DNA from: Eledone cirrhosa
Lineage: Eukaryota
Assembly (NCBI GenBank): GCA_964016885.1
Contig: OZ024740.1
Coordinates: forward strand, 288,176,001 to 288,240,000
Reading direction: 5' to 3'
DNA length: 64,000 nt
In this document: piece after piece, positions 11,786-63,865 of the stretch
Position numbering within the stretch: the stretch's first letter is position 1
How the letters are laid out: every line of letters begins with the position of its first letter
Notes under the pieces: model-generated
What the model was told of the DNA's origin: nothing
Database searches by the model: none
What the model saw: only the letters and a program-made list of their open reading frames with translations
Made by a program: the position numbers and the translations under genes

Positions 11786-12449
11786 TGATGAAGGACTAAA
11801 TTTATTCATATGTAACCCATTTGCAACCACACAGCACGCTTGTTTTCATATTCACACATATATATTTTCCTCCGCTGTGACCCGTCTGTTTCTTTCTTGC
11901 TGCTTCCTCTTTTCTCTGTATCTCTCACTTCCCTTTACCCCTCTAACAGTCACTCTCTCTGTTAGCCTCTTCCTCACCTTTCACTCACTCACTCTCTGCT
12001 ACTCCCTCTCCTACTTCCTCCCGTTTGACCTGTGCGAAATTCTTTCCTCACGCACACTTTGACCAGGTCGGTTGTTCTTCATTCTCTCTCGTCTACGATT
12101 TCACAGAACTTATGTTCACCGATTTCAGGGACTTGACTCCTTCTTCCTCCCGTTTGACCTGTGCGAAATTCTTTCCCTGCTCACATTTCGACCAGGTTTG
12201 ATGGTCTTTATTCTCCCTCGTCCACGATTTCACAGAACTTATATTCATCGATTTCAGGGACTTGACTCCTTCTTCCTCACTTTTCGTTGCATTACCATCA
12301 ATGATTGTTTACAGTCTCGCTCATTCCTCTTATTTACGTGTCCCAACGACTTTCTTTAGCCGTTGCTCGCACCAACCGGAGGTATATGGTCTTTAAAGCG
12401 ATGAAATACCAATGAAGGCTGGAAGATCACTGATGAAGGACTAAATTTA

Positions 12450-13760: not shown

Positions 13761-15080
13761 TTAAATTGACAGAGAGAACAGACAAGCAGTGTTTTACATC
13801 CTTCCAACCACAATAGACGCAATCGGAAGTAATTGTTGACATGGAGTTTACCATGGAAACATGACTAACTTCCTTCCTCTTAGAACACTGATTTCTAATT
13901 TAGGCGCAAGGCCAGCAATTTTGGATGAAAGGGAAAGTGGAAAGTGGATTATATCAACCTCACGGCTCGATTGCTACTTTATATTATTGACCACCTAAGG
14001 GCAGTATCGTTAGAGCGTCGGACACCTTACCTTGCAGCATAGTTACGGCCCTTTACGGTCTGAGTTCAAATCCCGTCTAGGTTAGCTTTGCCTTTCATCC
14101 TTACGGGGTCGATAAAATAAAGTACCAGTAAGGCACTATATTATCGATCTCCGAAGGATGGAAGGCAAAGTTGACCCCGGTGTGAATTGAACTGAGGAAG
14201 TATAAAGTCCCGGAACAAATACTGCTAACCCTTTATTCTACTCTCTACTGACTTTGCCAAGCCACAACCTGTCCTACAATATTAACAACATTAACATATT
14301 TCAGTTAGACGTCGTTCTCAATGCTTCTGCCATCCACCCGTCCCTTATGGTGTATTCTGCTGTTTAATCCTGAGATTCTCAAAGTAGGCGCTACAGCAGG
14401 ATTTGAATTCAGAACGTGACGCCATTGAACTAATACCACAAAGCAGTTCGTTCGATGCTTTAAAAATCCGGGGGGGGGGGGCACTGTGGCCTAGAGGGTG
14501 GTAGAGATAATATAATAGTATATTAAATATATTAATTTTACCTTTTGTTTTTTTCGGGGTGGATAAAAGGAAGTACCGATCTTGACGGACTGGCGGATTT
14601 TTAAAGCATCGAACGAACTGCTTTGTGGTATTAGTTCAATGGCGTCACGTTCTGAGTTCAAATCCTGCTGTAGCGTACTTAGTGGTAGATTTAATCTGTC
14701 ACCCGGTTTAACACCACCACCAGTGCTATTGGGTTCCTTTAGCGGAGTTAACTCTGCTGCAAGCATTCGGATCAGGTCTGCGACCAGACGATAACTTCCC
14801 CCCTCCATCCCAGTAGCCACGGAGCCCCTGACTAAACAGTAAAAGAAAAAAAAATGTTTCAAACATTGTTGACTTCTCATGAGGGTGGTGGATGGGAGGA
14901 GTTGTTATAGCGTCGGATAAAATGGTTTATATTTGTTTTGGCTCTTTATGTTCTGAGTTCAAATTCCTCGAAGGTAAGCTTTGCTTTTCATCCTTCTTGG
15001 GTCGAGTCTTATTAGTTTCACGCTTGGAGGGGGAAGTAATGAGGGTTTTGTAGTATTGGACACAAGTCCTTCTTCAGAAG

Positions 15081-15608
15081 GTCAGTGGTATGACTGTGTG
15101 AGCAGTCAGTGGTATGACTGTGTGAGCAGTCAGTGGTATTACTGTGTGAGCAGTCAGTGGTATGACTGTGTGAGCAGTCAGTGGTATGACTGTGTGAGCA
15201 GTCAGTGGTATGACTGTGTGAGCAGTCAGTGGTATGACTGTGTGAGCAGTCAGTGGTATGACTGTGTGAGCAGTCAGTGGTATGACTGTGTGAGCGGTCA
15301 GTGGTATGACTGTGTGAGCGGTCAGTGGTATGACTGTGTGAGCGGTCAGTGGTATGACTGTGTGAGCAGTCAGTGGTATGACTGTGTGAGCAGTCAGTGG
15401 TATGACTGTGTGAGCAGTCAGTGGTATGACTGTGTGAGCAGTCAGTGGTATGACTGTGTGAGCAGTCAGTGGTATGACTGTGTGAGTGGTCAGTGGTATG
15501 ACTGTGTGAGCGGTCAGTGGTATGACTGTGTGAGCAGTCAGTGGTATGACTGTGTGAGCAGTCAGTGGTATGACTGTGTGAGCAGTCAGTGGTATGACTG
15601 TGTGAGCG
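15081..15608. repeat. 24-bp minisatellite, about 22 copies (GTCAGTGGTATGACTGTGTGAGCA)
   Basis: Direct reading; gives the spurious SSQWYDCV ORF. Confidence 0.95.
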
Positions 15609-16249
15609 ATGTTCTGAGTTCAAATTCCTCGAAGGTAAGCTTTGCTTTTCATCCTTCTTGGGTCGATAATAAAGTCAAGCAGTGGGGTCGATAAAATAGG
15701 CTTTATTTAAACCTCAAATTGTTGACCTTGTATCCAAATTATATCCTGACGCTCTACCGATACTGCTAAATCCACCACCCTAGTTGCCTATATAATTAAA
15801 GACGTTCCAGCTGTGACCATCCCGTCTTTTCTTATACCAGGGACTATATTGTTCAATGTAATGTACCCCAACCTTTTTTTTTCACAAACAGTTTGTTAAT
15901 TCTAGAAGGCCGAGCAGCTGTGTAAAAGATCCCTTGTCATAGGTACTGCTGTTGTTGTTGTTATTATTATTCCAATATTGTATTAACAATAGAGAACAAG
16001 AATCCTTTGTTGCTACAGACGGTAGGTGTGATACAGCTCAGCACAAAAACACACGCATTCACATAATCACTATAGGCACATTACACACACACACTCACAC
16101 ACACATACACTCTCAAATATTTACATACATATATATACTTCCACATATACATATAAACACTGTATACATAATATATATATATATATATATATGGCTAACA
16201 CAACAACGCACTTACACAAGCACGAATATACATTATATATGTATGAGTA

Positions 16250-23841: not shown

Positions 23842-25526
23842 ATGGCGGAAAAGATGGCAGACATGTCTGCCATTAGCTCTGCCACGCCCCCCCAAGTCTG
23901 AAGAAAAAAAAAATAATTACAACAAAATTAGACAACGAAACAAACAAAGAAAATGAAAAAACAAATGTTAAGGAAAATGAGCAAACGGAAAACAAACAAA
24001 CAGAAAATAATACAAATAACAACAGGGCAACTTTCGCCCAGAAAACAAAACAATCCATTACATACACACCAATTGACCTAACGGCCGCCAGAGAAAAACT
24101 GGCTGAAGCAAAGAAACACATTGTTTTGGGGGAGAACGGAATGTTTTCCATTAACTCCCCCCCAGAATTCAAGAAAGCGAGAACAGAGAACACAGTTCTC
24201 TTCAGAACAATCCTAAACCAAACAAGAAAGCCAGCACAGCCCAGCCAAATGGAGATAGAGTTGGTCCTAAAAGACTATATGAAGAATATTCTCTTCATAC
24301 GAAAGGACCGACTCTATGGCAGCATTTCGGTCCTAACAAAAGACAAGGAAACGGCGGAGAAGCTTTCCCTAAGTCCACTCTCATCGACAACATATAGCTT
24401 CTATCCCTCCTACATGGGTAGAAGAACACAGAGAGTAAAAATACAAACAATGCTGCCCACAATGGACTTCTGGTGGGCTATTGCTGGCTTCATAGACATG
24501 GGCGAGGACACAGTGCTGTCAATGGGGAAGGCATCCGGAGATGCGTTCCTGGGAATGGGCCTCGACCTACTAGTCCAAATGAGGCCCGAAAGAATAACAC
24601 AAATCCCGGATCGCATCTGGCTGGATGAGCTCACCCCAATAGATATAATTGTAGAGGGGAGAAGACCAGCATGCTATTTATGCACGGAAAGGGGACACAT
24701 TAAGGCTAACTGCCCGAAACGTATCCCCCAAAAAGGACTATTGCCCACACCCATCACAAACAGTACACCAACACCACCCACCTCCAAAAATACACTAATA
24801 CCACACACAGCAAACAAAATACAAACACCACCAAGCACAACACAAACATCACCACCACCAGCACCAAACACAAGCACGACACAAAAATCACCACCACCAT
24901 CACGAACACAAACACCACCACCACCATTACCAACCACAAGCACGACACAAACAGCACCACCACCACCACAAAACGCATTCCAAACAAATAAAAAAAAAAA
25001 ACAGCAACAAATCTACCCCTCCCGCAAAAAAAAACAACCAGACACGACGTCCCTCCCACCTAGCGCTGAAGAGTTTCCCCCAACTTCTGAAGAAGAAGGA
25101 GGAGAAGCCTTCAGACAAGTTAAAAGAAAAAAAAGAAAGCACACACCCAGCACACCACAAATAACCCACACACAAACACCAACTCCAATAAAAAACACCC
25201 CACTCTCAACAAACAAAAATAAATCTGCGCCTCCCCCCTTCGAAACATTGACAGCATCACAAAAAAAGACATTGCAATACACATATATAAATAAAGAAAA
25301 CAAAAAACTGTTTAAATTAATAAACAATAGCCCTTTGGTGCAAACCGAAGGGCCAAACTTTATCTTAACAGAGAACTTCACCCATTTAAAAATGATAAAG
25401 GTTCCTCTGGACCTTTATCGTTCCTTAAAAGAACAATTTAGACAGGACGTGAGCCCCCCCCCCCTGTTTAAAACCGTTAAATCGCGTCCTCTTGAAAGAT
25501 TTCCCCATAACCTCCCCTCTCCCTGA
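23842..25526 (+). CDS. LINE ORF1, gag-like with CCHC zinc knuckle
   Basis: ORF 24126-25526 has CYLCTERGHIKANC and a Pro/Thr-rich tail; frame stays open upstream to an A-run near 23905, with probable ATG at 23842 across one frameshift. Confidence 0.8.
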
Positions 25527-25679
25527 CACAACTCCAAACACCCCAACCCCACCACACTCGGGCACCCCCACACCACCACAAAACATCCCTCCACCCAACA
25601 CACCTGACGCCATGGAAATTACACAGCCCGGAGAGGTAGGTGCTTTTCTTTCTTCACTTTCAACACCAAAATAGATCAA

Positions 25680-28600
25680 TTGAGAGTTGGCTGTTTGAAC
25701 GCGCGTGGCCTGGGCTCAGCTTGGAAGCAAGCAAAGCTACTAAGTGACCTCAGGTCACGAAGTATAGATGTGATGGTTGTTTGCGAGAGTCGGATCAGCA
25801 GCGTGCGACAGCTGGCTCCCGCCTTCGATGACTTTGAGATGCACGCATCTCTCTGTCAACCCGGAGGCGGGGGAGGGGGAGTTGCCGTACTGCTGGATAA
25901 ACGTCTGGCTCTCGACGTACAGATTGTTCACTCGGACCCGGGGGGTCGATTACTGGTGCTGGACGTCGGAGGCGGTGAAGGTGGGGCTTTCAGACTGGTC
26001 GGTCTTTATGCCCCCTTCGGGGCTGAAAGAGCCGACTTCTTCCAGCGACTGGAGACTTTTCTAGGAACGTCGCGTTCCCTGCTTTTAGTGGGGGACTGGA
26101 ATGGAATCCTAGATGCGCGTTGGGACTATGCAGGGGCATGTCCCGATAGAGGGGGGTGTAGCAGCCTCAAGGGGTTACTCGATCGATTCGACCTGGTCGA
26201 TAGATTTCGACTAGATTGTCCAACTGCGCCAACCTGGACCTGGGCAAACCGCAGTGGACAATCTAGATCGTACCTAGATAGGTTTTTGGTTAGGAGTAAG
26301 GATAGGGACGTATTTAGTTGTCCAGAATTGATCATGGTTGGCTATTCAGATCACAAATTAGTGACCTGCGTGGTCAACCTTGATAGAACGCATAGACAGG
26401 GTCCCGGTTACTGGAAGATGAACTTGTCCTTGCCGGCAAAGAAAGATTACAGGAACCGGATTAGTAGCTTAGTTAAGATGCGGTTGACGGGAGCGATCGT
26501 CAACAGTAGGTGGTGGGTATCTCTAAAGAGAGAGATTAGAGTAAGTTCGATAGGTTACAGTAAGGAACTAGCGGCGAATAGAAATAGGAAGGAAAGGGAG
26601 TTAACAGATAAACTAGAAGAGGCGATTAGGAGCGGAGACGTAGCCAGAGTGTTAGCGGCGAGAACGGCGTTGAGCCAGTTCTTTGATGCGAAGCACGAAG
26701 GCTGCGTTGTCCGAAGTAAAATACGTGCTTTAGGAAACGAGGGGACCAAAGCTGTTAGCTGGGCCCGCGTGACAGAAGCCAAGAGTGGGATTAAATCCAC
26801 CATTCGGTCTTTGCGAGACCAGGATGGACGGGTGATCCTTGAACCTGAGCGGATGTGCGAGGCCTTTCAAAGGCACTTTGCTCGACTGTTCGGAGGGGCG
26901 GGGGGCCGGATGGGGATGTGGACTTCGGTCCATACCTCGACGGTCTACCGCGTCTTTCGAGCGGCGAAGCGGAGTGCTGCGAAAGGCCAATCACAGCCAC
27001 TGAAATCGGGGAAGCGCTCAGCCAATGCAGCAGACGCAAATCTCCGGGTCTCGATGGTCTACCATACGAACTTTATTTAGCTATGCCGGTCTTGTTCTCC
27101 GAACTCCTCGAGGCTGTCTATTGCAACTGGCAACAGAACGGGAGAATTCCCTGTTCTGTGACCAAGGGCGTGGTCACGCTAGTGAGGAAGGACGAGAGCA
27201 AGGGGGACGACTTAAGTAACTTTAGGCCCATAACTCTGCTGAATGCAGAGTTACAGATTTTGGCCAAGGTGTTGGCGAAGAGGTTGGCGCTTGTGGTGGG
27301 TGGTTTGGTGGGAGACGCGCAGACATGCGCTATCCCGTCCAGGTCCATTCACGACAACCTCCACCTCATGCGATACATCATAGAGAGGGTTGGCAACGAA
27401 CCCGGCTTTGGTGGGGCCCTGATCAACTTGGATCAATCTAAGGCGTTCGATAGGGTCGACCATGGTTACCTGGATGCGGTGCTAGCGGCGGCGGGCTTCG
27501 GACCCGTTTTCAGGGGCTGGATTTCTGCCATGCACAGTGGCAACATCTACTCTAGGATTAAAGTAAACGGCTACCTCTCGGAGCCGTTTCAAATCACCCG
27601 GTCCATCAGACAGGGGTGCCCCCTCTCCTCCCTTCTGTACGTATTGACTCTCGAGCCACTGCTGCGGAAGTTGGAGTTGCTGCGGGGCATACCCCTGGAA
27701 CCGGGATTGCACAAAGCGGTCTCGGCCTATGCCGACGACGTAACAGTAATGGTGGCGGACGCCTCGGAAATCGGGGCGATCGCCACCCTACTGGAGGAAT
27801 ACGAAAGGCTGACGGGGGCTAGGCTGAACCTGGACAAGTCAGTCGGTTTGCAACTCGGAACGTGGAGGGGCAAACCGATGCCGTTAGATGGTGTCGTCGG
27901 GCGGTGGACGGAGGGCCCGGTGAAGCTGCTCGGGGTCTGGTTCGGACCGGACCTCCAGGTGGAGAAGAATTGGGGCGAGGTGACGAGCAGGGTGTTTGCG
28001 CTGACCCAGAAGTGGGCCAAGTGCAAACTATCACTGAAAGGTCGGGCGGAGGTGACGAACGCTTACATAGCGTCCGTCATCTGCTACCGCCTGACCGTCG
28101 TGCCTTGCCCCAAGGAAAAGATCACCATCATGGAACGCATGCTCTTCCAGTTCCTCTGGAAGAAGCGGCCTCCCATGGTGAGGAGATCCATCTGCTGCCA
28201 GCACCCTTCGAAAGGAGGGCTGGGTATGCCGTGGCTGTTGATGCGTAGGCACGCATTGAGGCTACGGCATCTACAGGTATTCCTCACCGGTCAGCCGGTG
28301 TGGGCCCCGTTTGTGAGGCGAGCCTTCCCACAGCTCGTCTCGCTCACCGAGCTGCAATCCTGGGTGAAGCAAAGACCGAGAAAACTGGGCAACTGGCACA
28401 CCGAGTGTGCCCAGGCGCTCACGGCTATCTGGCAAGCGGACCCGACTGTCAGCGGAGAATCCACCTCGACATTCTATAGAGGGCTGGTGGCTAGCAGGGG
28501 CGACGACACCCTTGGAGAGTCGCTAGGCATGGAGGAGGACGAACTTGCCAGCCTGTTCGGTAGAACTTTCGGCCCGGGACCCATGGACAACTTCCAGAGG

Positions 28601-29117
28601 TCCCTAGCCTGGCAGTGTTACCGGGGGGGGGGGGGCTCTGCCCGTTCGAGAAAAGCTCTACAGACACGGGCGCCCGGGCAGGGATCCAGCGAAAAAGATC
28701 TGTCCCAGATGCGTGCGCGACGAGGAAACCGTTGCGCATGCACTGGTACACTGCCCGGGCGTTGCCGATCTGTGGGGCTACGTCGAACGACTGCTGTCGC
28801 GTGTGGCGCCGATTCGATTAACCGCCAAGTCTGTGGTGAACATCAAGCCGCCGCCTCCCTTCAGAAACGAAGCAGAGGCGGTCTTTCTGTGCGTAATAGC
28901 CATGATGAAAGAGGTTGTGTGGTGGACGCGCCTGAAAGGTCTGAGGTCGGGTGACTTTCTCTCCGGCCATCACCTGGTTTACTTCTTCCGATACCACTTC
29001 GGAAGAAGGATCAGGATGGAGAGAGAAGTGCTTGGCCCCAGACAGTTTTATGAAAGGTGGGTGAAAGAAGCGAGAATGGCTCGTGTAAATGGGCCTTCTC
29101 TCTACATTGTTCTGTAG
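25680..29117 (+). CDS. LINE ORF2: AP endonuclease, reverse transcriptase, C-terminal zinc finger (2 frameshifts)
   Basis: CLNARGL, GDWN, YLDRF, SDH (APE); KSPGLDG, RPITLLN, LDQSKAFDRV, RQGCPLS, AYADD (RT); CPRC..ETVAHALVHC; shifts at G-runs near 26900 and 28625. Confidence 0.93.
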
Positions 29118-31433: not shown

Positions 31434-32837
31434 CAGTGGCGGATTTAACAGGTGGCGAAGGTGGCAAATGCCGACTGGGCCCCTGCCACCTGGGCCCCTT
31501 CCGACTGGGCGCTTGCAAAAAAAAAAAAAAAATGTAATTTGGGCGATATCCAAAAATACCTCCTCCATGCCTCGGGCTAAATAACTTCACTGTTCGCTGC
31601 TGAAATGAGGCTAAATAACTTCGCTGCTGGCTGCTGAAATGAGGCTATTCCAACAAATTTACATTCCCTTTTTTTTAGCCGTTAAAAGAAATATAGATTT
31701 ATTTATTTATTTGAAACGTTTTTGTTAGTTTCATTGTTTTGTTTTTTTGGCGATATTTTTGTTAGTTTCTTGTGTTTTTTTTTAGTTTCTTTTTGATTTA
31801 TTCCTTGTGACTGAGTGCTTTGAACGTTCAACAGATAAATTGGAAGAACTCTGATGCGATCACAAATTTGAACAATTTGTGGATCAGGCAAAAAAAGCCT
31901 GGAATGACGTGGGATTTGATGCATCTGAAGCTGATTTTAAAATAACGCGAGTAAGGAGAAGAAAGATTATGGATGGTGAAGTTTGTGGTGTTGAAAGACT
32001 AGCTACTGCTTCAGATAGATATCGCACTGCAATTTATTTTCAATCACTGGATAGTATGATTGGAGAGATGAGAGCCCGAACTGAAGGAATAAAAAAAATA
32101 TCTTCAATCTTTGGATTTTTTAGTCCAAATCGACTGGCTAAATGCTCAGATGATGAACTAAAAACACATGTAGCAACATTGGTAGATAACTTTCCAAATG
32201 AATTCACACTGGAACTCAGAAATGAACTCTTTTCTTTCATTGGCCTCTACTTTTCACAGCCAAACGCAGCTTTAAAACAAAGTGGGGTTATGCCATATCT
32301 GAAATTTTTACTGAACAATGACTTGTGTGATGTCTTTCCCGAGTTTGAAATTCTGGTAAGGCTATTTCTCACTTTACCAATTGGCATAGCAAGTGCGGAA
32401 CGCTCTTTCAGTGTTCTACGAAGAATTAAAAATTATCTTCGTTCAACGATGGGCCAGGAGAGGCTATCCAGTTTTGCCCTGCTGCCAATTGAAAACAAAA
32501 TTACTAAATCAGTAAACTTGGACCACGCTATAACTCATTTTTCAACTGTTAAAGCTCGCAGAATTCTGCGCATGTAAAAGCAATTTGTGTAAAAGACTAA
32601 CATATATACAACTTTATTACTTTATTATTTGTTTACAGTACAGCACATCTGTTTGTTTGTTTCAAATAAAGTGTACTTGTAATTTAATTGTCTTCTTAAT
32701 GATTATTGGTAGCTAAATGGGAAATTAAAAAAAAAACTTTTTCAATACTCGCTCGAAAAGAAGGTACTTTAATTTTCACTCTGGGGCCTCCTTACTGACC
32801 AATGCCGACTGGGCCCTATTCTTTAAATCCGCCACTG
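31434..32837 (+). mobile_element. Internally deleted hAT transposon
   Basis: TIR CAGTGGCGGATTTAA, perfect 8 bp TSD CTATTGAT. Confidence 0.93.
31879..32577 (+). pseudogene. hAT transposase C-terminal dimerisation domain
   Basis: LTLPIGIASAERSFSVLRRIKNYLRSTMGQERL; N-terminal part missing. Confidence 0.9.
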
Positions 32838-33429
32838 CTATTGATACACTGGTGATGAATTGTCTTGTCCTATAAAGCATCCGAAACTGTAATGATCCCC
32901 AAAAAGACAGCCGATGAGGGGTTATTGTCCATATACTTGTCTCTTCCGCATTTTCTGTTTCCTATATTTCTCCCACGTGGTTTTTTAGATGACATTATCA
33001 TTGTAATCAAATTAAACTGTTATATGTGAACCGTACTATCTTTAGTTAATATATTCTTCATCTTGGCGGTTTTGTATCCCTTATGATTTCAACACACATA
33101 TGTGTGTGTTCTTCTCTACTATGTTATAAAGAACTCAGCATTTTTTTCTTGAGCTCATTTGATTATAAGCCCATTGACGAGCCCTGGAATGTTATGATTC
33201 TGACACTGTTTATGGCGAAACATTCTCTTCTTTGAGTCTGTCCAGGCGTTTTATAGTTGTAAAGGTGAGTTTGTACATTCTACTTGACCTATCCAATTAT
33301 TATGTATTTTCCACACTTTTCGTAGTCTTTATGTATTTCACTCTAGTGGTTCCCTACCCCCCCGTAATTCAAAACATACTCTTTTGTGTATTTGTGTATT
33401 CTTCTTTATATATATATATATATATATAT

Positions 33430-36374: not shown

Positions 36375-36443
36375 TTTGTATAAATTAAAGAAATGGTGAG
36401 CGAAGACAACGTGAAAACGGATGGATCACAAGGTAGTCTCCTC

Positions 36444-36509
36444 TCATCAGTCGACGTCTGGAGGTCCTTGTGATTTCGGTTCATTAAGGTCGATATCACT
36501 AGCTCTAGA
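36444..36509 (-). ncRNA. Candidate non-circularly permuted hammerhead-like RNA (second family)
   Basis: rc: TCTAGAG cta GTGA-TA-TCGAC..GAAA-TCAC aaggac CTCCAGA c GTCGA-CTGATGA. Confidence 0.55.
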
Positions 36510-36790
36510 GCACATAGGACAGTAACAGATAGATACAAGGCATTACAATTGGTTTTTCGACTATTTATAAATAAAATCAAATTTACTACAAACCAGTGCT
36601 GCAACTGAAAATAAAAGATGGAAACGAAGCCCAACATAGCCTCGAAAAGAAAGTATGTACAGAAGACGAAGTGAGAAAGAGAAAGTGGAAGAGACAGTTT
36701 GGACGTTAGTCCTAAATGACAGACACAACGAGCAGATTTTTTCCAATTCCACCCCACCCGTCTCTTCACTCTATCTAATTTCTCATTCTT

Positions 36791-37472: not shown

Positions 37473-37522
37473 GAGCTGTACTGATGAAGCGTGATACCCA
37501 GAAACATTAGTGTCTGCAGTTC
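37473..37522 (+). ncRNA. Type I hammerhead, copy 1 of 438 bp tandem
   Basis: GAGCTGTA-CTGATGA-a GCGT gat ACCC a-GAAA-CATTAGTG-TC-TGCAGTTC. Confidence 0.75.
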
Positions 37523-38061: not shown

Positions 38062-41000
38062 TCTCTCTATATATAAAACGGAAGATGTCTGTCTGTGTGA
38101 GTGTATGATTTTTATACATTTCCACATTTCTCTACCGATTTTGATGATTTTTGTCCAATGTGCTCCAAATTTACCAACGATGGTCAACGCATAATAAACT
38201 TTGCCAAATATTTCCTGCTTCTATGAAAAAAGTCGATAAAACTAAATACATGCTGAAACCCTCTCTCTTACACGCTTAATCCCTCTCTCTACTACTCTCA
38301 AAAATCGACGAAAGTACATACATGATGCAACTCTCTTTTAAAGGTTCAACCCTCCCTCTACTCCCTTCTCAATCTCCTCTGCAACTCTCTTTAAAAGGTT
38401 AATCGCTCCCTCTACTACCCTATCACCATTACAGTTTACAACAGCGACAAAACATCGTTCAGGAACGCGACATAAACTTTGAAAATTAAGCAACACATCA
38501 ATTTATACAACAACAAACATAGTCATAACGACGCTCATACATCAAATAACAAAACTTAAAAAGCCGATAAAACTAAATACATGCTCCTCTCTCACCATTA
38601 CATTTTACACCATTACATTTTATATCAAATAACAAATATTCAAAAGCAACAGTTGAATTTATACAACAAACGTAGTCATAACGACGCTTAAGCATCTATC
38701 TACTTGAATCTCAACAAAGACATTATATTTTATTGTTGTCCTTTTTGTAATATTTTTTCTTTGTTTTTAGCAATATGAGACAAAAAAATAATGAGAAAAC
38801 TTTTTTCAGGAACGTCCGATTTTGATAATTTTTTTTCCAGTGTGCTCCAAATTATCGCCCCTGTTTACGCGTCGACCTTCATTGGGAGTCCCCGATACAT
38901 GAGTGAACGCACACAGGATGCTATGACGTACGTGCGTCTCTACGGCAGACCGGATTTCTTCATCACTTCAACATGCAACCTTAAGTAGACTGAAATTACC
39001 GCGGAATTAATCCCTGGACAAAGGGCGTCAGACAGACACGACCTTACGGCACGAGTCTTCCACTTGAAATTGACAAAACTTATTAAACTCCTAAAATCAG
39101 GTAAGGCCTTTGGATCTATTAGGTGATACGTGTACACCACCGTTGAGTGGCAAAAGAGAGTCCTGCCACACGCCCACCTACTCATTTGGCTGATAACGAA
39201 AATCATCGCAACCAGCATTGACAGCATTATTTCAGCAGAAATACCCGACCCAAAATTGGACAGAGAACTCCACAACATCGTCACTGCTCACATGGTGCAT
39301 GGGCCATGCGGAAACGGTTTCAACATGAATTCGCCATGCATTAAAGAAAGAAGATGCACCAAGAGGTATCCTAGGCCATTCCTCCGAGAAACTCGGACAA
39401 GTGGCGACGGTTACCCATTATACCGCCGCAGGGAGCCAGCGGACGGAGTAATTGTTGCGAAAACACCACATCACCACGTCGACAACCGGTGGATTGTACC
39501 CTACTGCCCACTTCTGCTTAAATTGTTTAACGCCCACATTAACGTTGAATACTGCCACTCTGTCAAATCAAAAAAGTACGTCTGCAAGTATATCAATAAG
39601 GGGTCCGATGCTGCGTCCTTCGGTCTTACAATGGAGAACAGCCGAGACGAAGTAACTCGATACCAGGTCGGTCGATACATCAACAGTAATGAAGCGTTCT
39701 AGCGATTCTTCCACTTTGCAATACACCATAACTACCCCCCCCCCCTCCTCAAACAGTTGGCGGTGCACCGCCTCCACCGCTGCTGAGATAGCAGAGGAAC
39801 CCAAGGATACCACACTTACGGCATTTTTTAAGTTATGCCGAAACGATCCCTTCGCCAAGACCCTCTTCTACTCTCAGGTGCCATCATACTACACATGGAA
39901 CACAGACAACAGAATTTGGTTAAGAAGGGTGAAAGGACAACCCATCGAGGGACATCCAGACATTAAAATCTCCCCTACCCTTGGGATAGTCTACACCATT
40001 CATCCTAACCAACAGGAATGCTTTTATCTCCGCCTTCTACTGCATGAGGTGGTAGGACCGACATCTTTCGACGGTCTGAAAACAACCAACGGGGAGGTTT
40101 GTACTTCATTCCGCGCAGCCTGCCTTAGACTGTGGGGCTTGCATTAAGTCATCTCCCCTGTGGCAGGAGGTGACAATTCTGACCCTCACAACAAACATGA
40201 GAGCCCAACTGCTCGGCGACCACTCATCAGCCGACTTCTCGAGGGACCTCTTAACAGTTGGTGACGGCACTGCACCTTCTGATGCAGCTGGAGAAATGGT
40301 AGTCTCGCAAGTAGGCACCGTTGTCGACACTGTTGACGACCTCACAGCCTTTGTCTTTCCCGATATGGCCATCAACTACAAAAACATGAGTTGGCTGTGC
40401 GATAGAGCCATATTGGCTCCCAAAAAATGTCTCCGTTGCAAAAATCAATGAGGACCTTCTACAACGCATTCCTGGAAACCTCCGTACCTACAAATCTGTG
40501 GACAAAGTTGTGGACAAAGATGAGGTTGACGATTTTCCAACAACATTCCTCAATTCCTTGGACCTCTCTGGACTGCCACCTCATGAACTGCGCGTCAAAG
40601 TTGGGACTCCAGTGATGCTGTTGAGGAACCTGGAACCACCACGTCTCTGCAACGGAACACGGTTAGTGGTAAGAAACCTCCTGCCCCATGTAATTGAAGC
40701 CACAATTCTCACGGGCTGTGGTGCTGGAGAAAACGTCTTCATACCCAGAATACCATTAACTCCATCAGGTACGGGATGCCCCTGTACTCTGCGCCGACTT
40801 CAATTCTCCGTTAAACTTTGCTTCGCGATGTCAATCAACAAGTCCCAAGGCCAAACGCTATCAACGGCAGCCCTCCATTTAGCTCAGCCGTGCTTCTCAC
40901 ACGGCCAATTATACGTCGCGTGCTTAAGAGTGGGATGCAAGCAGAACTTATTCATACTTGTGCCCAAAGGCAGAACAAAAAATGTGGTCTACAAAGAGGT

Positions 41001-41186
41001 GCTGTGACTCCTGTATTCAGCACCACTACAGTCTTGCCGGTCTGACATATGGTGAGTAGATGCTGTTGTTGTATATTTTCAAACTTACTCGTATTTACTT
41101 TCTTTGCCTCAATAATCATAATTGAGTGGAATCATTGAGTACTTTAAAGCAATTAAACTCCGAGCAACGCCAGGCACTACTGCTAG
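38062..41186 (+). mobile_element. Helitron (internally deleted)
   Basis: 5' TC..TATATATAAAA, 3' CCGAGCAACGCCAGG hairpin remnant and CTAG, inserted between A and T; RepHel fragments inside. Confidence 0.9.
38870..41007 (+). pseudogene. Helitron Rep-helicase remnants
   Basis: STFIGSPRYM..YGRPDFFIT, VEWQKRVLPHAH (HUH), KYVCKYINKG, Pif1 motifs LCNGTRL, AMSINKSQGQT, FSHGQLYVA; stops, frameshifts, deletions. Confidence 0.93.
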
Positions 41187-46591: not shown

Positions 46592-48530
46592 CCGTGTTTC
46601 CCCGATTATAAGCCATGGCTTATATTAATTTTTACTCCGAAATGTATCACTACGGCTTATTTTCGGAGGAGGGGGTTCATATACCGAAAAAACGACACTA
46701 CGAAACTGAAAATTAAAAATTCGCTAAATGATTGGAAATTACGATAAAACAATCTGCATTTACGCGCAACGTTTATTTGAAAGATCAAATTTATTAAAAA
46801 TTAACACACCCTTTAATTCAAAAACTCATGAGCGAAATAATCCACTAATTTATTCAAAAATAATCATGTCATCCTGCTCTGGAATGTCATTGTTTTCCAA
46901 ATCAGTGGATTCAATGATTCCTGTGGAATTTTCTTGTAACTCAATTTCCTGCAGAAATTTCCTCCCTAGTCTTTCGTGTTGAGCGATAGAGGTTGAATTG
47001 AATGGAGAGTTCTTATCCAGATAGCCTGCTCATAGTGCATTCATGACACAGCTATCTGTGATTTTTGTTCCATGAATTTCTTACCCAAGTCACGATCTCT
47101 TGAAGGCTGGGCTTCACGAAATTTCCCCGCTCATTTTTCGCCATTCTATTTTCGATGTAGTCATTTATTTCCTTGCGCAGATGGTCCTTGAATGGTTTAT
47201 TCAGTGCGATGTCAAGAGTCTGGAGATAGGTGGTCATTCCTGCGGGAATCATCATTTGATCGATTCTTCTTTCTGTAAGAAAGTTCTTCATATCTTTGGC
47301 GCGGTGCGTGCTGGCTGAATCCCAGACTATGAGACCTATTTGGGTTCCACGCAAAATCAATGGCAGCATGAAATCGACCCACTTCCTTAAAACTGCCTGT
47401 GTGCACCACGCCTTTTCTGTTTCCAGAACACAGATACCTGAAACGCGTTCAATTTATCTTTCTTGCCTTTAGTGGTGATAAGAGGTGGGGCTTTGCTTCC
47501 GTCGAGACGAATTGCCAAGATATAGTATGTAACTCGGGAACTTTTGTAACCAGTGGATGGAATGTAAATTGACGACTCACCCCTTTGATCAATTGTAGAT
47601 TGAGAGCTTTGATCCATGAATACTGCTGTTTCATCCATAGCAATGATGTTGGAGAGACGGTAGTTAGAAAAGTCTATTCCATCAACAAAAGACTTAAATG
47701 CGAGTGCACGTTTAATAATCTCAGTATCGTCCAGTTTGAACAGTGTTTCCGATCTTCTCAGAGAAAATTCGTGTCGCTGAAGGAAATTATCCAGCCAGTG
47801 TTTGGATGCTTTGAATTCTTCTGGAACTATACCAAACTCTAGTGCATTTGTAAGGGCAAATGTTTGAATATCAGCCCTGTGAACAACCAAAGCTCTGGCT
47901 CTTCTTTCAGCAATCCATTCACAGATGGCGTCTTCCAGCTCAAGAAATATCGGTTGTCGACCAGATCCACGCTTACATTTCTTTGCATTTCCCTCGTCCA
48001 TGTCCTGACTGAGTTTATCGTAGTCCATTCTCCATCTATGAACCATTCGGAGATCCAGATTCTTTTCTTTGCAGAAAATAGTAAGATTCTTGCCCAGTGA
48101 TTCCTCTATAATTCCTTTCTTATACTCGACTGTATAACTCTTCTTTCCTTTCATCTTGTCTAGGGCTGAAAATGATCTTCTCCCCTGAAGTTACTGATAA
48201 GCCATTACTTCCGGTTTGTACCCGCATTTGAATAAACAATATTGATTGCATGCACTTTCCCCTTTCCTTTCGTTAATTTCATTATCGATTTTTTTCACTT
48301 CCGCGCATTCCACAAACCTCTTATACACCCGCTTGTCAGTTAGTTTTACATTAAGATACAATCCTGTACTATAATGGCTGATTGCGCCAATTTTCATAGC
48401 CGGCCATTTCTTTCTTTTGGCGTTCATTTTTGCTACGGCTTATTTTCGGGGCATGGCTTATATTAAATCCATCCTGAAATGTAGTGCTACGGCTTATTTT
48501 CGGGGGTGGCTTATAATGGGGGAAACACGG
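46592..48530 (-). mobile_element. pogo/Tigger-family DNA transposon, both ends present
   Basis: TIR CCGTGTTTCCCC..ATTATAAGCC at both ends, TA TSD, subterminal GGCTTAT repeats. Confidence 0.93.
46850..48154 (-). pseudogene. pogo transposase (HTH plus CENP-B HTH plus DDE_1), frameshifted
   Basis: FKASKHWLDNFLQRH, IAMDET, WDSASTH, LQTLDIALNKPFK. Confidence 0.9.
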
Positions 48531-59558: not shown

Positions 59559-62500
59559 TCCTGGGTATGACATTAAACTACATCCAGTGGCAAGGCGCCA
59601 GTAAGATACTGTCAGCCATTGAAAAGAAATATGGAGAGTCGATCTAACAGCACTAGGGTTAGAGCCCCTAACTACACTGTCAAGGAGCAGTCTGGTCGTT
59701 ATGACTCTGCTGGCTTAGAGCCACAGGGAGGACCAGTGGATGATGGACCAGCTGTCTCTGAGACAAATATAAAGAGTGCAGTTTCAAAATGGGCACTCTG
59801 AATGTGAGGACTATTCGGACGCTGGAGAAGAGAGAGGAGTTGGGTCATCTGTTTGAGGAGAGTGGTATACAGATACTTGCGATCCAAGAACACAGGATCC
59901 TACACGATGAGTCCGTGAGGAGTGTGATGATTTGGAAGATGAGCCAGCTCATCACCACATCGGCAGTGAAGAACATGACCAATGCTGCAGTGGGAGTGGG
60001 TTTTGTTTTCAGCACAAAAACCAGTCTATTGGTGAGGGAAATAATATCTGTCTCCCCTCGAGTGTTGAGGGTGACCTTCAATGGAAACCCAAGACTGACA
60101 GTCATCCCAGCCTATAGTCCAACCGAGGGAGACAGTGATATGAGTGCGGAAGAGTTCCACGAGGAGGTGTGTAGAGCTGTCAACACCACACAAGCACACA
60201 GCATCCTGCTTGTTCTGGGGGACTTCAATGCACATCTGAGTAAGGAGGGCGGTGAAGATCCTTGCTGGTACTTCCATAACAACACCAACCGAAATGGAAG
60301 ACTACTGAGAGACACCCTGCTGGAGGTGAACTTGATGGTAACCAACCTAAGGTTTAGGAAGAATCTGAGGAAGATGTGGACCTACATCTCAGATATGCAC
60401 CTGTCCAAGTCACAGATTGATTTCATTCTGGTGAAGAAAAAGTGGCGGAATAGTGTTCTGAACACAGAACCATACAACTATTTCAGTACACTGGGCAGTG
60501 ACCACCGGCTTGTTATGAGTGAGGTCCGGGTGAGCTTAAGGAAGAGCAAGGCTCAGCCCCGGAGAGCAATCTATGACTGGGGAGCTTTCAAGGAAGATGA
60601 TAAGCTACAGAAGAGGTTCACAGTAGAAGTGAGGAACAGGTTCAGTACTCTGTGTGGAGAGACAGAGGAGAGAGATTGGATGGACTGAGGAGAGTGTGAC
60701 AAAGCAAATGATACCTGGTACCAAGGAGAAAGAACAAAAGGAAGCATGTCAGCTCTGGAGACCCAAACGTGTGTGCAGCCAGAGAACACCTGAACGCTGC
60801 CAAGGACCAATTCTATGCTGATCCTACGGAGGAGAGGAAGGAGAATGTGGAAGTGATGAGGAAAGAACTCTGTACCGCTTACACTGAGGCCAGAGAGGAG
60901 GCACTGATAGAGAAGATCAGAAGTGTGGAGAGAGCGGTTGGCAGGTCTGGATGTAAGGAGAGCTGGATGATCATCAACGAGATCACAGGGAGGAAGAGAA
61001 GGTGTTCGAGTCAGATCCAGGGAACAGGGCCCGATGATAGGAAGGGGAAATGGCTAGACGATTTTAGGACCCTACTAGGAGAGCTGCCCTCCACAGCCTA
61101 GAACACTGGGGAGATCAGACGGCTGTTTGAAGAACTGGATATTGAGACAGGGCCCTTCACCAGAGAAGACCTTCAGAGAGCCAAGAAGAAGACCAAGGAG
61201 GACAAGGCTCATGGAGAAGATGGAATGGCATCAGAGGTGATGAAGAAGTGTGATTTTGATGATATCATCCTGGGGTTCTGTAACCAGGCACTGGAGAAAG
61301 GAGTTGCTTCGAATCAGTGGAGGATCAGTAACATCGTCCCAGTGCCAAAGAAGGGAGATCTCTCTAACACCAACAACTACAGGGGGATCTCACTGACGTC
61401 ACTTGTGGCAAAGACCCTCAACAGGACGATTCTGAACAGGATCCAGCCCGAGATGGAGAAGAAGCTCAGGGACAACCAGAACGGCTTCAGAGAGGGAAGA
61501 TCAACCACCAGTCACATCCTGATGCTGAGGAGGATATTAGAGGGAGCTAGAGCAAAGTGCCTTCCTACGGTCATGGTTTTCATTGACTTTAGGAAGGCTT
61601 TTGATTCTGTGCGCCGTCACTGCTTGATGAAGATCTTACAGGCTTATGGAATCCCCAAGAAGATAGTGGACCTGATATCACTGCTCTACACCAACACCAA
61701 AGCCCAAGCAATTACACCCGACGGGATGACGGAGTTCTTTGAGATACTGGCTGGAGTGCTGCAGGGAGATACATTGGCTCCCTACCTTTTTATCATCGTA
61801 GTGGACTATTGTATACGCCTTGCACTGGAGAAACACCATGGTGGCGTTTAAAATGTAACACCGGATCAGAGCAGGAGAGTTAAGGAGAAAAAGATATCGG
61901 ATGCTGAATTTGCCGACGACATAGTTTTGGTGACAAACACAGTGAAGGAGGCAGAGGATTTGATGCAGGGGGTGGAGACTGTGTCCATGAGTGTGGGGCT
62001 GAGAATGAATGAGATTAAGACAACATATCTGGTAGAGAATGTTGAGAAGCCAGAGGGGATTACTAATGTAGGCGGGAAGCCACTAGAGTTGGTTGAGGAC
62101 TTCCTGTATTTGGGAGCAAAGATTGGGAATACGGAAGATGATGTGGTTGAGAGGAAGAGCAAAGCCTGGGCAGCGTGCCACAGCTTGAGATCGGTGTGGA
62201 AGTCGGACCTCCGTAAAGACCTGAAGGTCCGCCTCTTCATTGCTCTAGTGGAGTCTGTGCTGCTGTACGGGTCTGAGACTTGGACACTTACCAAGAAACT
62301 CACTCAGATGGTGGATGGGTGCTACACGAGAATGTTGAGGATGGCTCTGAACATTAATCAGTATACACTGAGGATGAAAAACCCAGAGCTGGATGGGAGC
62401 CTCCCAAAGGTCAGCTCAAAGGTGACACTGAGGAGACTGAGGTTAGCTGGACATGCTCACCGACATCCAGAGTTGACACTGCACTCAGTGCTCCCGTGGG

Positions 62501-62680
62501 AGACCCTGCATGGACAAACTGGAAAAGGAAGACCGAGGTTAACATATGTTGATGCCCTAAGGACAGACACTGGTCTGTTGGAGACGCAGGACATGTTAGC
62601 GATAATGAGGGACAGAGACCGCTGGAGAGAACTCGTCTATGGACCTCGGGAATTTTACCCGCCTTAGATAGATAGATAGA
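59559..62680 (+). mobile_element. Near-full-length RTE-clade LINE, decayed
   Basis: Single APE-RT frame without ORF1, short 5' UTR, (GATA)n tail directly after the stop. Confidence 0.9.
59789..62667 (+). pseudogene. RTE APE-reverse transcriptase
   Basis: GTLNVRT, IQE, GDFNA, SDH; YRGISL, FIDFRKAFDS, GVLQGDTLAP, FADD; GRPRLTY; several stops and frameshifts. Confidence 0.92.
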
Positions 62681-63591: not shown

Positions 63592-63646
63592 AAAAATGGC
63601 ATGCTGCGTGGTTGCACATGCGTTACATATGCGTAAAATTAGTCCT

Positions 63647-63711
63647 TCGTCAGTGATCTTCCAACCTTCATTGGTATTTCTTCGCTTTAAAGATCATATA
63701 CCTCTAGTTGG
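63647..63711 (-). ncRNA. Candidate permuted hammerhead-like RNA (family P3, copy 2)
   Basis: rc: CCAACT aga GGTA-TA-TGATCTT..GAAA-TACC aatga AGGTTGG AAGATCA-CTGACGA. Confidence 0.55.
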
Positions 63712-63865
63712 TGCGAGCAACAACTAAAGAAAGTTATTGGGACACGTAAAATAGGGTGAAGCGAACGACACATGTACACAAACATAGATGGTAATATATA
63801 TATATATATATATATACGTACATACATATATATATATATATATATATACATACACACACACATAT

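Follow-up and report, generated by a model that had tools for sequence, protein, structure and literature searches.

The feature under study lies on the minus strand of a 64,000-nt stretch of Eledone cirrhosa DNA (the window), within a copy of a dispersed, non-coding repeat that we call family A (36379–36737, minus strand). This copy is truncated to about 360 bp, as judged by the extent of its homology to other copies, and has (CA)n/(TA)n on its 3′ side. Copies of a second repeat, family B, occur at 12365–12437 (plus strand) and 63646–63718 (minus strand). Both are predicted to adopt the fold described below for the 36444 copy, the latter with A-A at position 10.1–11.1. A decayed copy of a third repeat, family C, with a GUC site, lies at 32833–32937 (plus strand); the core of this copy is mutated to CCGAUGA, and its predicted fold is of the same rewired kind. 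The window also contains fragments of LINE-type, hAT, Helitron and Tc5/DDE transposons (23877–28954 and 59762–62667, both plus strand; 31855–32577; 39127–41007; 47052–48190), an open frame with a match to the OCRE domain (14978–15694, plus strand; E 3e-10) that is possibly a host-gene exon, and a near-perfect inverted repeat of 120 bp (2677–2796). Hammerheads of the canonical type I are present as well. One family, with A-A at 10.1–11.1 followed by a 4-bp stem II, is found at 37476–37519 (plus strand) and at loci L071 and L093; elsewhere in the genome (L200:6633–7768, L161, L175 and L039), a retrozyme-like family of tandem 528-bp units carries a type I hammerhead with a long stem II.

On the minus strand the motif consists of TCTAGAG (36509–36503), GTGA-TA (36499–36494) and TCGAC (36493–36489), then 11 nt, then GAAA (36477–36474), TCAC (36473–36470), CTCCAGA (36463–36457), GTCGA (36455–36451) and CTGATGA (36450–36444). 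Every word named in a sequence-only reading of this DNA is located where that reading had placed it, with stem I paired at 5/5 and stem III at 4/4 positions. The hammerhead drawn there had no stem II; stem II is in fact present, in composite form. From 5′ to 3′, the fold consists of a stem II strand, 1 nt, a bridge strand, stem III, the UH site, stem I and a UUAAW linker, followed by stem II, GAAA, stem III, the bridge, stem I and CUGAUGA, with a closing base at the 3′ end. In the 36444 copy the upstream stem II strand, GUGC (36510–36513), lies outside the interval of the earlier reading and pairs with 36482–36479 at 3/4 positions. Next on the minus strand are the 5′ strand of the bridging helix (36503–36508; 5/6), the 5′ strand of stem III (36496–36499; 4/4 with 36473–36470), U16.1-A17 (36494–36495) and the 5′ strand of stem I (36487–36493; 5/5 in the core, 6/7 when extended). 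The second half of the fold contains the UAAU end of the linker together with the 3′ strand of stem II (GAAC here, mostly GCAC or GUAC in the family) and C11.1 (36478–36486), the GAAA core box with the 3′ strand of stem III (36470–36477), the 3′ strand of the bridging helix (36458–36463), and the 3′ strand of stem I with CUGAUGA and G10.1, the last forming with C11.1 the G-C pair that closes stem II (36443–36457). Hammerhead cleavage follows the NUH rule, and with the triplet AUA it is predicted between 36494 and 36493.

The window was scanned with a descriptor comprising stem III, UH, stem I, linker, GAAA, stem III, spacer, stem I and CUGANGA. Exactly three matches were obtained (12381 plus, 63702 minus and 36499 minus), the linker being 11 nt and the spacer 14 nt long in all of them. 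The same descriptor gave a single match in 200 dinucleotide-shuffled windows, 0.005 per window versus three in the real one. An Rfam scan of the window with E up to 1 produced 110 matches, none of them to a hammerhead family. This would favor a chance arrangement in AT-rich repeats, a reading we regard as extremely unlikely: it is contradicted by the shuffle control and by the slide controls given below, and hammerhead matches are missing because the Rfam models cannot represent this strand order. The circular order C-G-S of Rfam hammerhead types I–III is not found here, where the order is S-G-C. Judged from sequence, the 36444 motif is a real hammerhead core in the order site-GAAA-CUGAUGA.

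We compared the helices among the repeat copies, using for family A the 22 ungapped, in-register rows out of 30 loci. Across 43 distinct copies of families A and B, 88.8% of the cells in the five helices are paired with a covariation score of 0.577, compared with 31–47% of cells and a score of at most 0.18 in slid-partner controls. Two-sided changes occur in every helix of these 43 copies, including 4/5 pairs of stem II, 5/6 of the bridge and 3/4 of stem III; the cells are copies rather than events, and the stem II changes amount to about four family-level contrasts plus metagenome matches. For two of five measures the shuffle control was not exceeded, ‘pairs with a two-sided change’ (40/500) and ‘pair types’ (78/500). 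Stem I covaries among the B subfamilies, appearing as UGGUC/GAUCA, UGAUU/AAUCA and UGGCC/GGCCA, and these subfamilies have three different bridges and AUA, GUA or AUC as the cut triplet. Nested folding fails to reproduce this structure (z −1.1 to +1.0), a pseudoknot that such folding cannot model. By this comparative evidence covariation extends over all the helices in families A, B and C, and it bears out the earlier proposal of a selected, permuted hammerhead-type fold.

Stem II is assembled from two sources, one pair being made through the base after CUGAUGA and 4–5 pairs through the strand 5′ of the cleavage site. The upstream pairing is GUGC/GCAC in family A and UCGC/GCGA in family B. At least 3/4 positions of this strand are paired in 17/22 A copies, and 4/4 in 59/61 B rows. 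The closing pair 10.1–11.1, which may be G-C, G-U, A-U or U-A, is present in 19/22 A, 39/41 B1, 5/5 B3, 15/15 B4 and 12/13 C copies. A stem II strand directly after CUGAUGA reaches at least 3/4 pairs in 0/22 A, 1/41 B1, 0/5 B3 and 0/15 B4 copies. In family C, counted over 13 of 14 loci (L497 was misoriented and was left out), 55/65 cells of the upstream stem II are paired versus 24/65 for the downstream alternative; stem III pairs in 47/52, stem I in 79/91 and the bridge in 55/78 cells, and a GUC site is present in 8/13 loci. A stem II formed from the downstream strand, irregular variants included, is ruled out by the pair counts in A, B and C. Two other candidates were rejected: a looser downstream hairpin, found in 8/26 family-A rows and no B row and therefore at most family-specific, and a GGAC/GTCC pairing with upstream or downstream sequence, whose letters are invariant and whose distances vary.

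The unpaired strand after CUGAUGA, together with one pair of the upstream helix that is open in 11/22 A copies, could be taken to indicate a type-SGC ‘minizyme’ that lacks stem II and consists of stems I and III, a distal extension of stem III and the single closing pair, the upstream pairing being incidental. A mismatch at 10.1–11.1 is likewise tolerated in canonical type I families of the genome. However, the upstream strand pairs through different letters in families A, B and C and does so in four of six unselected metagenome loci, and its 1-nt spacing from the bridge matches the 1–2 nt of published type-SGC RNAs. We therefore consider a minizyme quite unlikely and retain the composite stem II.

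The pairing of TCTAGAG with CTCCAGA, proposed earlier as a distal stem III, does form (5/6 in the 36444 copy, with one A-C mismatch), but it is better read as a helix bridging stems I and II. This helix of 6 bp is paired at 5/6 or more positions in 18/22 A copies, with one partner 5′ of the cleavage site. Because the upstream stem II strand sits one base before it, the helix joins the outer ends of stems II and I; the 1-nt gap recurs in all three families and in four five-helix metagenome loci. From this position we infer that the helix would serve as a stem I–stem II peripheral interaction. We also infer that the RNA represents the S-G-C ring of type-SGC and type-CSG hammerheads, opened at the joint between CUGAUGA and stem II.

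The core elements CUGANGA, GAAA and UH beside the helices are intact in the 36444 copy, in 14/22 A copies and in 58/61 B rows. The cleavage triplet is AUA in the 36444 copy, and AUA, GUA, AUC or GUC is the majority triplet in each family or subfamily. At the subfamily level the catalytic letters and the NUH rule are thus kept while the helix sequences turn over. This conservation argues against a real fold that does not cut efficiently in cis and that would instead be an element for recognition by reverse transcriptase or for ligation, or one assisted by protein. A stem III that is stable as a monomer, unlike that of the minimal dimer type, argues in the same direction. Minimal hammerheads of metazoan Penelope-like elements are reported to cleave poorly in vitro (PMC4209133), the published type-SGC rates are modest, at 0.007–0.19 per min (PMC10085705), and the copy ends fall 3′ of the core, at points resembling (TA)n, and not at the cut site; these observations would be consistent with inefficient cutting, which on balance we consider unlikely.

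The 36444 copy itself falls under the strict five-helix cut-off. In its nested minimum-energy fold, a copy-specific strand (36425–36433, minus strand) forms a competing 9-bp helix that can sequester stem III; this pairing is complete (8/8) in 1/22 A copies. The competing duplex is worth −22.5 kcal/mol here versus −8 to −13 in six other copies, and by a rough comparison that ignores loop costs it equals the four ribozyme helices of this copy taken together (−22.1 kcal/mol). In four young B copies the ribozyme helices beat the competing pairing by 24–35. In all likelihood the competing helix arose by accident during decay and would weaken the 36444 copy, and we predict that this copy cuts weakly or only during transcription. 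The sequence-only reading had suggested that this downstream pairing, TCACAAGG/CCTTGTGA, could act as a switch or a second site. A general switch does not hold up, as the pairing is perfect in only 1/22 A copies and absent from the B subfamilies (0/61 rows). Nor is a second site supported, because the pairing has no stem I partner: a matching stem I is found in at most 1/22 A copies and pairs at 1/5 positions in the 36444 copy.

Family A is old, with 75–88% identity among 40 scored matches of 176 candidates. Its units of about 430–490 bp occur in tandem, with shifts of 487, 464, 450 and 428 bp at L012, L019, L005 and L024, respectively. Family B, to which the 12372 copy belongs, is young (96–97% identity, 1629 candidates) and has a unit of about 645 bp, with a range of about 520–650 bp among its subfamilies. 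For family C, 40 of 179 candidates were scored. Neither the A nor the B unit contains an ORF over 52 aa (longest 37 aa in A and 52 aa in B), and in both families each non-coding tandem monomer carries one ribozyme. The claim that A and B are independent families could be sustained in part. Their repeat units show no similarity above shuffles (score 25, equalled in 47/200 shuffles) and, as had been claimed, the helices differ, at 25/40 stem positions; the ribozyme, on the other hand, is not demonstrably independent, since spacing and 12/20 unpaired non-core letters are common to both. A joint model of A and B, the check proposed with the original reading, did retrieve a further family, namely C, in the same 64-kb window (23 bits).

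Copies also occur as tandem and inverted pairs, the latter at L028, L100, L150, L165 and L228. A dinucleotide run lies within 150 nt of the core in 16/28 A copies compared with a background of 25%; the corresponding counts for family B are biased, since the queries included the repeat end. In 800 kb taken at even steps over six chromosomes there were seven strict SGC matches, and none in 10 shuffles. The joint model gave 12 matches over 50 bits in the same 800 kb, all of them B-like; family A had none in this sample. Copy number in the genome extrapolates roughly to thousands to tens of thousands, with A rarer than B. Since the units are in tandem, and dimeric activation of animal hammerheads is known (PMC4209133), the active form might be assembled from two units or two molecules in the canonical order, the odd order being only the reading of a single unit. 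Every strand of the fold finds its partner inside 75 nt of a single copy, however, and tandem S-G-C neighbours yield only S-G-C, G-C-S and C-S-G, a C-G-S order needing three units; moreover, single-copy ends of Naiad elements show, by eye, the identical order. Assembly from two units is accordingly very improbable, and we continue with a ribozyme contained in one unit.

We also searched metagenomes for the same build. A pattern with no pairing rule gave 118 loci from 2/64 parts of the collection. Stems I and III were both paired in 6/90 evaluable loci, versus 0.22 expected. An upstream stem II paired at 5/5 was found in four of these six stem-selected loci compared with 5/84 others (p=7e-4), and the classic downstream stem II in none of the six. 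The five-helix descriptor, with new helix sequences, matched 4/118 metagenome loci, compared with one match in 20 × 800 kb of shuffled sequence, and 0/120 loci from viral contigs. In the four matching loci the upstream strand supplies the whole of stem II, the closing pair included. A pattern specific for A and B had no match in metagenomes. Between distant families the joint model has little power; among 100 metagenome loci it recovered only L375 (E 0.03) and L399 (E 0.97) of the real loci, besides two others. L387, L418, L472 and L484 form a related metagenomic group, in which stem III is long, the site is GUC and the stem II strand lies upstream. On the marine metagenome contig L447 a rewired hammerhead lies about 35 nt past the stop of an ORF, whose C-terminus we take to resemble the restriction-like endonuclease of HERO-type non-LTR elements. 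The peptide upstream of the L447 hammerhead had no Pfam match, and a protein atlas returned only unnamed eukaryote clusters, with recognition below threshold.

Naiad elements have been reported to have no canonical hammerheads, with eight families labelled ‘half core’ in the accessible text of the report (Craig et al. 2021, PMC8557442). We inspected by eye the last 330–400 nt or so of 53 consensus records published there. The rewired build could be drawn in 10 of these 53 ends (Obim, Ovul, Esco, Amil, Aacu, Anas, 3_Chem, 2_Movir, Plae and Bfor), with stem II at 3/4 in Esco and a stem I of only 2 bp in Bfor. Seven further ends appear by eye to be of non-circular types, one classic type-SGC, in the spider Naiad_Smim with a long insertion, and six clean type-CSG, in the nematode elements Naiad-1/2/3_Nbra, Hcon, Hpol and Asuum. 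Of the eight families labelled ‘half core’, five belong to those 17 and can be parsed by eye as complete permuted hammerheads. The end of Naiad-1_Movir has, by eye, a twister-like motif, and several bivalve and hemichordate Naiads have another conserved 3′ motif in common, one that does not contain CUGAUGA.

No intact Naiad was found in the genome of E. cirrhosa; among 142 protein matches, the longest open frame was 298 codons. The 24 decayed Naiad-like loci yielded neither homology to A or B nor a parsable ribozyme. A 15-nt motif from the published end of an octopus Naiad had two genome matches, neither inside a ribozyme, and a Naiad RT motif had 18 versus 26 for a control, four of the 18 being decayed Naiad-like remnants. 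Within 1.5 kb of the ribozymes, shared coding sequence was found at 0/30 A and 0/30 B loci, and no ORF with an N-terminal GIY-YIG and RT was seen. At 20 sampled loci combining a long ORF with a C-terminal GIY-YIG there were canonical type I hammerheads or none, and never the rewired motif at the end. Young Penelope-like elements with RT and C-terminal GIY-YIG, up to about 940 aa long and 96–98% alike, are found at L081–L100; the L081 family has a 3′ repeat of about 1.5 kb, and the portion shared by its members yielded no CUGANGA. Because the Naiad-like sequences have decayed and the GIY-YIG loci do not carry the motif, the young B copies must borrow from a Naiad that was missed or from another Penelope-like clade. 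Naiads and families A and B are alike in a (TA)n insertion bias, in tandem and inverted insertions and, by eye, in the way the ribozyme is built, several Naiads having a UUAA-type linker (PMC8557442); unlike Naiads, A and B have no ORF, and no homology to the Naiad remnants of this genome was detected.

Taking these results together, we believe with a probability of roughly 0.72 that the site holds a decayed copy of a hammerhead that is likely to cleave itself and whose strands follow a new order, within a non-coding tandem-unit repeat probably mobilised by Penelope-like retroelements. We hold with somewhat less assurance, at a little better than even odds, that this seventh hammerhead wiring is active and widespread in animal genomes, that Naiads use the non-circular series (the rewired form, type-SGC and type-CSG), and that retrozyme-like parasites and at least one other class of retroelement captured the wiring. 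The RNA would fold to the usual hammerhead core, stems I and II being tied to each other by the bridge, and the cut would fall after 36494. Cutting would turn tandem transcripts into unit-length RNAs, which may circularise and be reverse-transcribed over more than one unit length into (TA)n/(CA)n sites. A model of cutting, circularisation and retrotranscription has been proposed for Penelope-like hammerheads (PMC4209133), and retrozymes have been described as non-autonomous derivatives of Penelope-like elements (bioRxiv 10.64898/2026.07.22.740005). If the RNA cleaves, the claim of six permutations, which rests on unbreakable blocks, would be incomplete; non-circular hammerheads, known only from metatranscriptome and metagenome contigs that are unassigned, would be common on the chromosomes of animals; and the reported lack of hammerheads in Naiads would be an artefact of the search. 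A split stem II would also be a natural place for two-strand or switchable ribozymes.

The closest known class is type-SGC, defined by the order site-GAAA-CUGAUGA and, in the available text of its description, published only from metatranscriptomes (Eckert et al. 2023, PMC10085705). Five type-SGC RNAs cleave in vitro, and for one of them each of stems I–III, as well as a helix that bridges I and II, is required (PMC10085705). No type-SGC RNA is reported there from the genome of a known organism. In the literature searched, with most subscription papers outside its scope, the terms type-SGC and type-CSG are used only by that original paper, which has a passing citation in 2026 (PMC13725137), and we found neither a link of Naiads or animal repeats to non-circular hammerheads nor a split C block. 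The six-type scheme treats CUGAnGA and its flanking stem strands as an unbreakable block, and the published pattern requires 2–6 further stem II pairs after CUGAUGAG (PMC10085705); owing to this requirement, it would miss the 36444 site. Families A, B and C resemble type-SGC (HRIMA-1 and a variant) in the S-G-C blocks, the full core, a short linker between stems I and II and the I–II bridging helix, with 1 nt between stem II and bridging strand compared with 1–2 nt in type-SGC. They differ in that type-SGC has stem II and the partner of the bridge directly after CUGAnGA, whereas here both are at the 5′ end, before the cleavage site, and the C block is split, and in that type-SGC is known outside named genomes and the copies described here are chromosomal. 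The RNA thus probably works like a type-SGC hammerhead and yet stands outside the class as defined, because the stem II strand is not contiguous with CUGAnGA and the bridge partner is not 3′ of stem II. Type-CSG, with two metagenomic examples published (PMC10085705), has the identical cyclic order and is another opening of the same ring. Families A and B also resemble the non-LTR retrozymes of animals, whose tandem monomers are non-autonomous and non-coding, carry a single hammerhead apiece and are proposed to derive from the pseudo-LTRs of Penelope-like elements (PMC7229834; bioRxiv 10.64898/2026.07.22.740005); the hammerhead is a classical type I in those retrozymes, as far as their published descriptions extend, and a non-circularly permuted one here.
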